NCBI GenBank assembly: GCA_964016885.1
Contig: OZ024741.1
Location: 342,674,001 to 342,738,000, forward strand
From: Eledone cirrhosa
Lineage: Eukaryota
Reading direction: 5' to 3'
DNA: 64,000 nt
Part shown: positions 10,813 to 16,260 of the stretch, piece by piece
Position numbering within the stretch: position 1 is the stretch's first letter
Layout of the letters: each line of letters opens with the position of its first letter
The notes under the pieces: model-generated
Told to the model about the DNA's origin: nothing
Database searches by the model: none
Seen by the model: the letters and a program-made list of their open reading frames with translations, nothing else
Made by a program: the position numbers and the translations under genes

Positions 10813-11979
10813 ATTTATTAATGCATGGACAGTTATATGACCTCCTTTTCAGTCGAGAGACATACCAATACATATTCAAACATTGATACATATTCAAACA
10901 TTGAGGGTCAACATTCATTACAGAATTTAGAGTGGCAGTACACACTTTGAGATTACATTTATATTAATAGGTACAATCAAAAATCAAGGATATAGGTTAA
11001 AGTACAACATGAAGATAAGTGGTTATATAGTGCAAATGTTATATGTGTGGCACGCATGTGCGTCTTGTTTATATAGTGTGGCAGAGAGATATGTGTGGTA
11101 GAGGCACTTAGGTAGGTAAATAAGAGTGTTAGGTTGGTAGATCTGGTGGCAAAGTCTTTATATGATTGATATAGTCTGTGTGTGGAGAAATATTATAAGC
11201 ATTAAAGATGGTGCAAGCATTAAAAGTGTTATAAGTATTGGAGATGCGCAGCGCAGGGATGTCAAGTAATTCATGTACTTCGGCATTTTCATGGTCAAGG
11301 GAGTGTATATTTCGATTATATGCCTTTCACATAATCCACGACAATCCAGTTAGAGATCGTAGTCTGGTGTTCTTTAGTTCGATACAGGAGGTTGTTACGT
11401 TTCGAGAAACGCCATTGAATACCGGAAGTGTGTGTGTGGCTAAGGGGAGTTAATGCATGCGGGGAGGTAACTCTGGGGTTTCTATATCTAGCCATTAAAA
11501 TGTGTCCCAATATAGACCCTAAATTCTATATATATGTGTTTGTGTGTGTGCGTGTGTGTGCGTGTGTGTGCATGTGTGTGTGTGTGTGCTCTTCCAGCAA
11601 AATTCGAAGAATGAAACCTAAACCAGAAAGCAAGAATATTCAGATAACGAAACAAAAGGAATTTTTTTGATTGGATACATGTACAAAAGTAAAATAGATT
11701 AAATAAATATATAATATAATATATAAAATATAACATAATATAAACAGCTTAACCTTGAAACTAACGAGGTTTCAAACGCATTCAATTTAGCTAACGTAAT
11801 ACAATGACCTTTTCCGCCAACCATATATCACATTTAAAAACCACAAAAATAAGTTTACAATCGTCTCTAAATGTACAGGCTGGTCCGAAAGTCTTGCCCC
11901 CCACCTCTGTCACATATTGTTTTAACTTTCATTATTTTTTGTTTTAATAATATATATAATATAATTAATTATAATATAT

Positions 11980-12172
11980 AGTGATGGATTGGCAGTATCG
12001 GTAGATGGTCGGACGCCATGCTTTGACGCATAGAGTTACTACCCTTGCCATTCTGAGTTCAAATCCTGCCGAGGTTAACTTTGACTTTCATCCTTATAGG
12101 GTCGATAAAATAAAGTACCAGTAATACACTGAGTAATTGCTGGCCTTGTGCCAAAAGTAGAAACAATTAATT
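11980..12172 (+). mobile_element. OK-like SINE
   Basis: Same family as 8073-8263. Confidence 0.85.
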
Positions 12173-12271
12173 ATAATATATAGTAACAATTGGTTCTACT
12201 TTTGGCACAAGGCCAGCAATTATCCCAGTGTATTACTGGTACTTTATTTTATCGACACCGTAAGGATAAAG

Positions 12272-12446
12272 GGGGCATACGGGGCTTGGGCAGGGGTAGT
12301 ACCCTTGATGGTTGACAGCTGCACCCTAACTGGTAGGGTGGTCAGTCATCACCGGCCCCCACCCATCTCCTAAATCTCTCACGTGTGGCTCCAAGCGCCA
12401 TGCCCCGGCACATCGCTTCAGCTGGTGGACTGAACCACGCGAGGGA
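12272..12446 (+). ncRNA. HDV-like ribozyme at RTE 5' end
   Basis: P1 GGGGCAT(12272-78)/ATGCCCC(12400-06); P3 GGC/GCC; L3 TCCAAGC; P1.1 GG 12407-08; P4 catcgc-ttca-gctggtg; J4/2 CTGAA; P2 tctctcacgtg/cacgcgaggga. Confidence 0.82.
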
Positions 12447-13515
12447 GTGGTGTTGACACGGCACCACTAGGCGTATGAGCTTCAACAAGGAAGCCACTGG
12501 TTAAAGAAGAAGGAAATCCTCCCTCGGCACTGGTCCAGGGCTGAAGGCGACCCACACCATATTCCGTGGCCATCGGTTTGCAGTTCTACCAGAGACTACT
12601 CTACTTACTGTCTCTTTACTAAATGTCAGTGGTTGGGCTTCAGGTCAGCGACCTGTTCCCCGAAAAACTCTCCTGCTACGAAAACAATCCATAGTGCATC
12701 AGATTCAAATTCCAAGGGACTTTGTGGACGATATTGCTGCACTTGCAGAGAGCACAGCTGAACTGCAAATCATTGTGAACAATATCAATGTCGAAGCAGG
12801 AAGCTTAGGTCTCAATATCAGTGCCAAGAAAACCAAAAGCATGTTATCTGGGACACACCCACCATCAACCAGTGTCTTCATTGAACAGGGGGAGGTGGAG
12901 ATAGTGGACAACTTCACCTACCTAGGAAGCTCCATTAACAATGAGGGCACCATGGACAGTGAACTGAAATATAGAATGGGAAATGCTTCAGCAGCATTTA
13001 ACCAGCTTGACAAGATCTGGAAGAGCAGGAAGTTCACCCTCAAAACAAAGATGAGATTCTACAACAGCAACGTGCTGTCCACACTCTTGTACGGAAGTGA
13101 AATATGGCACCTTAAGACCAGCCAAGAGAAGAAGTTGGACGCATTCGATTCCAGATGTCTGCGAAAGATCCTGGGGATTAAATGGAGTGACCATGTAACA
13201 AACCAGGAAGTCAGGAACTGCACCAACCAGCAGCTAGTCTCTTCTACCATCTGCAAGCGACGCCTAGGCTGGTTTGGACACGCTTTGAGACTTCCCCCGG
13301 AGAGACTGGCGAACCAAGTACTTAAATGGAGCCCGCAGGGAAGCAGACGGAGAGGCCGACCCAAAATGAAGTGACGCCAGACAGTTGAGAGGGACCTGCG
13401 AGCGACAAACAGACAATGGCGGGACGCTGTGCAACTGGCTGCTGACCGAACGCGATGGAACACTATGATTGCCTCATGCGTCGCAAGACGCGGGAGCTTC
13501 TGAGTCTGAGTCTGA
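12272..13515 (+). mobile_element. Internally deleted RTE-clade LINE (intact 5' UTR, RT C-terminal part, (CTGAGT)n tail)
   Basis: ORF 12694-13374 contains FVDDIAAL..FTYLGS..LLYGSEIW..WFGHALR..RRRGRPK. Tail is ctgagtctgagtctgag. About 12-13 bp TSD. Confidence 0.9.
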
Positions 13516-13647
13516 GTAAGGATGAAAGGCGAAGTTTACCTTGGCGGGATTTGAACTCAGATCATAAAGGGTCGTAACTCTTTGCTGCAAAGCAATGCGT
13601 CCGACCCTCTACCAATACTGCCAATCCACCGCCTTTATAATTTATAC

Positions 13648-14395
13648 ATATATATAAAACTGAAGTTGTCTGTGTGTTTGTGTGTCCCCCCTAATTTTTG
13701 CAAAGTCTATACAAATCCACATTTCTACTCCGATTGACTTCAAACTTACATTTATATATTCCTTGCGGTCTAAAGATATTAACTGCAGTTTTTAATTTTC
13801 AATTTTCTGTTGTTAAAGGCGTTTTTTTCATTAAAACTTTAAGCCCTTTTTGTCGGCAATTTTGTCTACAATGTTTAAGAGAGACAACTCTTTAGTATTT
13901 TGAAAGAGTTACCTATCTTTATAGACTATATTATCCTTACTTAAACGTACACCCCTTGAAATTGTTGATGGTGACCCTAATAGTAACTCCGAAGCGTTCG
14001 GCATCCGATATAACAGTTCGGTCTATATCAGATTGAGTAGATTTTTGTAACCTTAAAAGTATCCAACTAAATTCCTTCATGCTCTCCACCACTGCAGTCC
14101 CACATGCTTACTACTCTGTAACTATTGCTTTCATTGTACCATAGCACAACAAATATATGTTCGGTTTGTCGAATGCCTTTTTACTTAACCCTATCGTCTT
14201 GGCTTTCGTGGTTTAAACATTTTACTCTCAGGCACCCAATTAAGTAATCTACAACGAATTTTTTTTATAAGCACAAAATGTAGACACCATCCCCAGGTCG
14301 AGGTATTCCGTACTTCTCTGTACTGTTTCAGAAAGGAGGGATAAACATGCCAATCTATGTTTAGAAGCCCGAGCAACGCCGAGCCATTCTGCTAG
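13648..14395 (+). mobile_element. Non-autonomous Helitron-like element
   Basis: 5' tatatataaaactgaagttgtctgtgtgt head; 3' GC hairpin gcccgagcaacgccgagc followed by CTAG|t. Confidence 0.65.
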
Positions 14396-14867
14396 TAATA
14401 ATAGTATACTTTTCTATTTCAGAGCTCCTACAGTTTGGAAGAGAGGCTGTTAGTAAGTGTGTGGACACATGATCGTGTGCATTCTGGTAAGAGCATGGAG
14501 GATGTGCGACATGACTTCACTGCAAGATTCGGCAAACCAGCTCCTCCGAAGAGGACGATACTGCGATGGGAACATACACTGTTTCTCATTACTTTTTGGT
14601 AGGGGGTGACAAGACTTTCGTGACCACATTGTAGCTAAGTGAACCCTACAAAAACAAGCTCATGCATAGAAACTCGTTGATCTTATTATTTTGAGAGTTA
14701 GAAAAATAGTTCATCCCCATTTACAGAATAATGGTTTGTCAGAGAATTGTTTCGTAATATGTATGATAAAAAAATAAAACTCTACATTTTCAGTTTGATA
14801 TTGTGGAGTTTTATCCCTCTATCACTACACTACTCCTACTACAAGCTCTTGCCAACCCTGCATACAG

Positions 14868-15336
14868 CAGCGATGGATTGGCAATATTAGAAGAGTGTCT
14901 GGCAACATGCTTTACGATATATAGTTACGTCCCTTTATATTATGATCTAATCGACTTTCCTCTCCCCAAATATTGTTAAGAACGTCGGATAAAATGTCTC
15001 TTGACATTCCGGGTTCAACAAAATAAAGTACCAGTCAAGTACAGGGCTTGAATGAATCAACTTTGATCTTCCTCCAAAATTGCTGGCCTTGTTCTTAAAT
15101 TAGAAATCATTATAGGGCGGTGGGTTGGCAGTGTCGGTAAAGCGTCGGGCACAATTCTTTGTATCATAGAGTTACGCTCCTTTATGATCCAAGTTCAAAT
15201 CCCGCCGAGGTTAATTTTTCCTTTCATCCTTACGGGGTCGATAAAATAAAGCACCAGTAATGCGCTGGGGTCGATTTAATCGACTTCCTCCTCCCTCCCA
15301 ATTTACTGTCATTGTGCCTATACTAGAAACCGTTAT
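14868..15336 (+). mobile_element. Two tandem OK-like SINEs (degenerate 14868-15112; better preserved 15114-15336)
   Basis: Family motifs gttcaaatcccgccgaggttaa..ggggtcgataaaataaagcacc. Confidence 0.8.
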
Positions 15337-15599
15337 ATTCACAGTTTATTACATTTCTTATATAAACGGTTCCGATGTTGAACGTAGGAATAAATCATGT
15401 GACGGATTATTTCGTTTGCGAATTATGAAGGAATATGACACTTAGGAAGGATATTATTTTATCTTTTGTTTAATTACGTTTAAAAATTACTGTCGAGAGT
15501 AACCTTGAAAAAAATTAATTTTCTAAATATAACATTCGATTTAAATGCTAATAAATCTTTTCTTTTATCACAAGCTTAATGAAAAATTTTAAATTAATA

Positions 15600-16260
15600 A
15601 ATTTAGTCTCCAAAATGACTAAATTATGGAGAATGATTGAGATGCATACCCAATATCAAATGGCAGACGCTAAAACCAGACACCGAGGTACTTCAAAGAA
15701 TCGACTATCTCACCATTGAATTACAGATCGTCGTCGGTCAAATGTGTCTGCAGGGTATACTGGGTGTACGAACAATGTATGAGGAGTAAACAGCTCCACT
15801 ATTCTGAACTGAAAATTGGAAAACATTCGTAAAATAAACTCCAAATATATAAAAAGACTGCATAAATTATAATCTAAAAGTAAAACTACTGATAAATATG
15901 TGTGACTGGAAAGAGCTGGCAGTAAATCGGAACTATTCGGGTGATTCCGTTAAGAAGGGTTGCAATATATTTGAGAAAAATGCAGATTAAGCAAGCCAAG
16001 TTAAAACATGCCTTACGTAAAGGCACCATTCTTATCATGTCTGACAATCTGAAGAACTGAAGGTATGATACCCGTGGATGAGGTCTTCTTTAGAAAACAG
16101 GTTACATTAATTACATGAGGTCGCACACATATTCACGAAAACAATCTACGGATACAAATGTCTCTTAGCTTCACTTCTGCAAAATACTACTTGTGAAATG
16201 TGCAGCAAATTGTGTGTTAAAACCTGGACTGCAAAGATATGGTAGTGAATAATAATTGGA
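15600..16260 (+). pseudogene. Decayed RTE/BovB-like LINE 3' end
   Basis: Broken translation with IKWQ..PDTEVL, QLHYSELKIGK and DWKELAVNR motifs. Confidence 0.55.

Follow-up and report, generated by a model that had tools for sequence, protein, structure and literature searches.

The head of the element has the fold of an HDV-like ribozyme

We found that the first 175 bases of a deleted RTE-type element in the genome of Eledone cirrhosa (12272..12446) fold as an HDV-like double pseudoknot, which, judging from a descriptor match, pairing and covariation, very probably frees the element RNA from a longer host transcript by a cut immediately before G12272. Positions refer to the window, the whole stretch of 64,000 nt that was analysed (GCA_964016885.1, contig OZ024741.1, 342,674,001-342,738,000, forward strand), and all features listed in it lie on the plus strand. 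Whole-genome counts refer to the 3.0-Gb assembly, and work cited by PMC number is drawn on for the sections of it that were available.

The nested double pseudoknot is complete in HDV order (P1, P1.1, P2, P3, P4), with all the core parts that an earlier note on this DNA had named in place. The 5' strand of P1 (12272..12278) opens with G1, the first base of the element, and forms seven Watson-Crick pairs with 12400-12406, the 3' strand that is followed by the P1.1 GG (12400..12408). J1/2 occupies 12279..12371 and is joined by an AAA linker (12372-12374) to the extended 5' strand of P2 (12375..12385). The P3-L3-P3 unit (12387..12399) pairs 12387-12389 with 12397-12399 around an L3 loop, UCCAAGC (12390-12396), in which C12391 and C12392 pair with G12408 and G12407 to make P1.1, and U12390 and G12395 may by analogy form a reverse wobble. 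P4 (12413..12428) pairs best across the alignment as 12413-12417/12424-12428, an alternative register (12411-12416/12421-12427) having been set aside with 71.6% of cells paired versus 84.7%. J4/2 (CUGAA, 12430..12434) starts with the candidate catalytic C12430 and includes A12433. The 3' strand of P2 (12436..12446) is directly followed by a conserved 7-bp hairpin (12447..12467). The 11 bp claimed for P2 hold as 11 positions only (12375-12385/12436-12446), since they comprise nine Watson-Crick pairs, one G-U and an A12381-C12440 mismatch. This mismatch is rare, 19 of 23 other family rows having T. The window copy departs from the family majority also at 12280, 12368, 12413 and 12446; pairs are broken by the differences at 12280 and 12440, and the catalytic core is untouched.

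Scanned over both strands, a generic HDV descriptor, composed after sight of the sequence, matched once in the window (G1 at 12272, C at 12430), twice in 60 block-shuffled windows and in none of 5000 segment shuffles. An Rfam scan matched no HDV-type model and returned weak matches only, of hairpin-driven miRNA-type and other kinds; a tRNA scan of 11000-16000 was likewise empty. Folded without constraints, the sequence is unremarkable (z -0.95), yet P1 is present in the best structure; such folding is uninformative here because the fold is a pseudoknot. In pseudoknot-free folding the probability of P1 is 0.82 for the head alone and 0.25, 0.15 and 0.00 with growing flanks, and P3 and P4 stay near 0. 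Directly upstream of G1, two head-to-head copies of a host repeat make a long inverted repeat (12087-12270, arms of 45 and 35 nt, 91-97%), and the window copy may have to fold in competition with it.

The element and its family

The window copy is bounded by target site duplications (TSDs). The left one (12260..12271) lies inside an abundant short interspersed repeat and has one G fewer than the right one (13516..13528), which follows a (TCTGAG)3 microsatellite tail whose last 2 nt are common with the target (13499..13517). Behind the ribozyme stand a 9-codon upstream ORF that occurs in most of the family copies examined (12475..12504), a blunt deletion junction joining element nt 445 to nt 2670 (12716..12717), and a 3' remnant of the RT ORF with the tail of RVT_1, DUF6451 and one in-frame stop (12717..13503). 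About 2.2 kb have thus been lost, including the endonuclease and most of the RT, with no microhomology at the joint.

A search with the head allowed 40 of 42 candidates to be scored, namely 29 copies of a young family A (85-97%) and 11 older ones. Family A has 338 exact 3' ends and 836 candidates by likeness; counts from these DNA searches are lower bounds. Its full-length copies measure about 3.47 kb, encode endonuclease and RT in one frame and end in a (TCTGAG)n tail; at the position of the relatives' initiator Met they have GTG in 24 of 27 copies and ATG in three. The architecture is that of the RTE clade, with about 3.5 kb, a single ORF for an APE endonuclease and an RT, and no further domain. 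So are the insertion traits: a microsatellite tail, TSDs, and a T-rich stretch that precedes the TSD by about 10 nt (27 sites, five of them the same repeated SINE site), as in the published RTE signature (PMC6007223). None of the protein matches is labelled RTE, and the clade name rests on architecture, tail and insertion signature rather than on an RT tree.

The earlier note had called the element a mini-RTE, which does not hold in the sense of a family. The deletion junction occurs once in the assembly (pattern search, one mismatch allowed) and in one of 40 scored out of 274 candidates. Internal deletions affect six of 28 mapped copies, and each of the five others has breakpoints of its own. 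A single-copy junction among other private deletions indicates one deleted copy. That the short element would instead belong to an amplified non-autonomous family, of the SIDE or bipartite RTE kind, is extremely unlikely: it does keep both ends and its TSD, its 5' and 3' ends are joined by an internal deletion as in R2 SIDEs and bipartite non-autonomous RTEs, and RTEs are known to spawn bipartite families (PMC5786205), but those are multi-copy, and here neither the window junction nor any of the five other deletions is shared by several copies. The window copy is a privately deleted, dead insertion, and selection acted on its source elements.

Other observations concern the family's insertions. 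The deletion joint of the window copy falls on element nt 2670, where one 5'-truncated copy (L150:779) also begins; this base is possibly an RT stop or RNA break site. An insertion hotspot was noted for the window, L132-L142 and L051: among 30 loci, selected by flank match as the best-scoring of 836 candidates, 11 have the tail joined to one and the same site in a SINE-like repeat that is abundant in the genome, the expected count being about 0.2-0.5 loci from one site per 6.4 kb; this site, a T stretch and then a GT matching the tail, fits the published RTE signature. Five family 3' ends lie on one strand within G000:C1:143415954-143695411, four of which are spaced at about 58-59 kb, in what is likely a segmental tandem duplication. 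Fragments of related heads occur in contigs of sequencing run X1, one of them showing a tandem repeat of the core region, and a weak hammerhead HH9 match on the minus strand of one locus (L125:1143-1218; 23.9 bits, gathering threshold 52, E 0.1) is probably due to chance.

Conservation and covariation of the fold

Covariation was assessed in 17 hand-chosen heads, comprising five of the 28 family A copies, seven of an older group B and five of an older group C, older copies lacking the P1 end being omitted. P1 changes on both strands between groups: GGGGCAU/AUGCCCC in A, RGGRAAU/AUUYCCY in most of B, and RGGGUGU/ACACCCY in C. Overall, 89% of its cells are paired versus 29-49% in slid controls, 16 cells are changed on both sides, and none of 500 shuffles does as well. 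Across the 17 rows, pair 5 is C-G in six, A-U in four and U-A in three, pair 6 is A-U in 12 and G-C in four, and pair 1 is G-C in nine, A-U in four and G-U in two; such counts are of related sequences and not of events, and perhaps three to five changes are independent. One P2 pair also covaries (G-C in seven, A-U in six), whereas P3 and P4 do so little, the third P3 pair being broken in six of 16 rows. Covariation in P1-P4 and J1/2, which the earlier note had proposed to check, is therefore present in P1, in one P2 pair and in a J1/2 stem other than the one it drew, but weak in P3 and P4. P1 pairing is not broken in the older families, which change both of its sides.

Among the core bases, U12390 and G12408 are each kept in 32 of 33 rows, A12433 in 30 and C12430 in 28 (22 of 24 young rows, six of nine old ones). 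Inserted copies decay neutrally and the core is not spared (25/501 versus 110/3845 cells). Position 12394 in L3 is A in all 33 rows although its neighbour varies. One published design descriptor fixes a C before the L3 G and a CRRA J4/2 (PMC6326823), whereas J4/2 here is CUGA or CUAA. The available sections of PMC3774820 describe R2 ribozymes with few rigidly kept positions, so that the descriptor's C is no strict requirement, and stress the importance of the L3 G (section 12). Because A12394 is invariant, descriptor and Rfam searches miss such ribozymes; related ones with the same L3 may be found in Ruminski 2011, Webb 2009, Webb and Luptak 2011 or their supplements.

These departures from the descriptor, together with the missing Rfam match, also fit a relic whose ancestors cleaved, the A in L3 and the CUGA in J4/2 having stopped cleavage, and which was kept as a protein-binding or translation element; the frequent GUG at the start position suggests a role in translation. 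We regard a relic as very unlikely, and the head is very likely functional, as a prediction, in the source elements.

The J1/2 arm resembles that of drz-Agam-2

The earlier note had closed J1/2 with an outer stem ggggc/gcccc, which shows no covariation: 73% of its cells are paired, and its score is reached by 249 of 500 shuffles. A rival outer stem, UGGG-CA-GGGG/CCCC-A-CCCA (12287-12290 and 12293-12296 with 12357-12360 and 12362-12365), covaries instead, with 88.7% of cells paired and none of 500 shuffles equalling it, and is preferred when the core is held folded. The two inner helices of the same proposal (tgatggttgac/gtcagtcatca and caccct/agggtg) do form in the core-held fold. J1/2 then makes a single long, irregular P1.2 arm, paired as 12279-12284/12366-12371, 12287-12296/12357-12365, 12306-12316/12341-12351 and 12322-12327/12335-12340. 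It folds as one long arm in all five A rows and in three of five C rows, and more poorly in the decayed B rows. A side hairpin at 12292-12306 has 87.8% of its cells paired but is unpopulated in the core-held fold, and possibly represents an intermediate of folding.

drz-Agam-2 is a ribozyme of RTE origin. The Eledone head shares with this Anopheles gambiae ribozyme a structured P1.2 in J1/2, short linkers, a cut before the first P1 base (predicted in the Eledone head) and an extended P2, of 12 bp there and 11 positions here (PMC4908430). According to the available sections of the same paper, this build, with a long P1.2, a short linker and an extended P2, makes drz-Agam-2 faster by orders of magnitude. 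The likeness is one of build; the place equivalent to C24 in L3 is an invariant A here, and cleavage, demonstrated for drz-Agam-2, is predicted for the Eledone head.

Family 5' ends pile up at G1

The predicted cut, placed by the earlier note at the TSD boundary, coincides with it to within one G. The TSD is 13 bp long with one G missing from the left copy, which ends at 12271, and the target base that follows the right copy (13529), as read from empty sites, is also G, so the boundary fits 12271/12272 within 1 nt.

The ends of other copies bear out the claim that the element's 5' end is G1. In 29 family A 5' regions, starts pile up at G1 (16, one of them degenerate), with five at nt 2-5, three at nt 9-10 and five further in. 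No common sequence extends upstream of 12272, for the flanks preceding the 16 copies that start at G1 show no relationship, being alike over 20 nt by 25% on average and by 50% at most. As the query itself began at G1, truncated copies are under-counted in these figures; a common 5' extension would still have shown. Clear TSDs end 0-8 nt before G1, and in an older-lineage copy (L059) the TSD also ends at the first P1 base.

Inversions flanked by TSDs make up four of 28 copies (L040, L046, L047, L050); their inverted piece reaches nt 1 at the internal joint, three with 1-4 extra bases and one degenerate. In the twin-priming model, the inverted piece is a cDNA run-off. Under this model, the pieces running to nt 1 place the end of the RNA template at G1, irrespective of pairing with the target.

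An internal promoter at or near G1 could also make most 5' ends, cleavage being secondary, as in the promoter-ribozyme Pr77 of L1Tc. Such a dual module has precedent in trypanosomatids (PMC3383444, PMC4035085), transcription initiated by a promoter at G1 would leave ends piled up in the same way, and the sequence of the head itself, beyond its pairing, is kept across lineages. The base at -1 of the 16 G1 starts is most often G (six, with five A and five T), weakly like a copied cap. However, ten of these junctions have no G there, several of the Gs are target bases, and the two-sided changes in P1 tie G1 to the catalytic fold. We therefore consider a promoter origin of most ends unlikely, and infer that self-cleavage, not initiation at G1, made the 5' end.

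One head on three coding lineages

The likeness of family A to the older groups ends near 12484, just behind the hairpin 12447-12467. Over 200 nt, heads are 57-78% identical between groups, and J1/2 53-78%, values uncorrected for decay. In contrast, the ORFs belong to three lineages whose intact representatives are 28-34% identical to one another, while each lineage has relatives 65-75% identical in distant animals or in other assemblies: the family A protein is 66-73% identical to Branchiostoma and other proteins, and pieces from loci L058 and L126 are 69% and 75% identical to other best matches, each different. Of 22 older loci, eight have lineage II coding sequence, four lineage III and ten none within 4.5 kb. 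A head continuous with the ORF is present in L058 (aa 1-1052), L069, L126 and L062, and L059, a lineage II copy with a deletion, is bounded by TSDs. At one locus (L033:1560-3698, minus strand), the family A protein is 69-73% identical to Branchiostoma and about 30% to the other RTE lineages of the genome; family A possibly arrived by horizontal transfer, as this sequence comparison suggests.

Closer relatives of the family A coding region, found in metagenomes, start otherwise. Metagenome elements with 42-47% identity to the family A endonuclease (L163/164, L165, L169) gave no match to the ribozyme model and start with a different common 5' motif. In L163, L165 and L169 this motif precedes the ORF match by about 180-260 nt, and it resembles a P2/P3 pseudoknot whose J4/2-like strand lacks a C. 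The descriptor had no match upstream of metagenome RTE loci in two scans, of 32 and of 14 loci, and the core pattern is absent from the viral and prokaryote collections searched. Against the metagenome, the ribozyme model hit only one RTE-like element, weakly (L166:4-185, E 0.17-0.56), which has a similar HDV-like build with an imperfect P1 and L3 UCCACGU, where C replaces the A found here.

Similar heads on ORFs only about 30% alike, with the closer metagenome relatives starting otherwise, favour exchange of the head within the host lineage. We consider it moderately probable, from these sequence comparisons, that one 200-nt HDV-like ribozyme cassette of the A24 type, resident in the host, was captured by template switching by incoming RTE coding regions, so that it now heads at least three lineages about 30% alike. 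Vertical descent with unusually strong conservation and no exchange would also leave a shared head. The head tree is a star, with two of 14 branches supported and no supported discordant clade, as descent would have it, and the similar build in the distant metagenome element agrees with this. However, J1/2 has kept its identity although the proteins have diverged so far, whereas silkmoth R2s keep little J1/2 identity, and the metagenome elements closer in endonuclease start with another motif. Descent alone thus appears somewhat unlikely.

Proposed mechanism and relation to known systems

In the mechanism that we propose, a source copy would be read through from a host promoter and the head of its transcript would fold. 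C12430, by analogy the general acid acting with Mg2+, would cut before G1, while the long P1.2 arm and the 11-position P2 may, as in related ribozymes, pinch P1 against P2 and so speed the cut. The uncapped RNA would be translated from its single ORF, mostly with a GUG start, probably aided by the head and the hairpin behind it; an IRES-like role of such heads has been described (PMC6765202). The protein would nick about 10 nt behind a T-rich stretch, prime on the tail and copy the template to its end at G1, with 5' joining by few or no extra bases. Template switching would move the head between RTE lineages, and the same kind of jump may have made the deleted copy.

Ribozymes at RTE 5' ends are already published (PMC5786205), and cutting at the 5' junction has been described for RTE as well as for other clades (PMC3774820, section 17; PMC5786205, section 23). 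Like known 5'-end HDV-like ribozymes, the Eledone head folds at the exact 5' end and has variable, microhomology-type junctions with few extra bases. Unlike them, it is common to three deep RTE lineages, which is unreported in the literature searched. The closest parallel is Pr77 of L1Tc/ingi/SIDER, also a single 5' module with a ribozyme, carried by LINEs that differ greatly in other respects (PMC4035085, PMC4758252). However, Pr77 has 77 nt, is also a promoter and is read by its authors, in the available sections, as common descent in one clade (PMC4035085), whereas the Eledone head has 200 nt with a large P1.2. The literature searched on HDV-like ribozymes in octopus, mollusc, cephalopod and RTE, which leaves repeat databases and most subscription papers outside, holds no description of an Eledone ribozyme or of RTE head exchange, the available sections of PMC4870747 and PMC10879173 included, and the word ribozyme is absent from two octopus transposable element papers (PMC9115989, PMC13282606).

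The mechanism is thus a known one, here unusually well documented, since the twin-primed copies are rare genomic evidence of where the template RNA ends and three families supply natural compensatory variants. Less expected are the invariant A in L3 and the same head on three ORF lineages about 30% identical. If the head was exchanged among these lineages, it would provide an explanation, open to testing, of how RTEs that move horizontally come by a functional 5' end in a new host.
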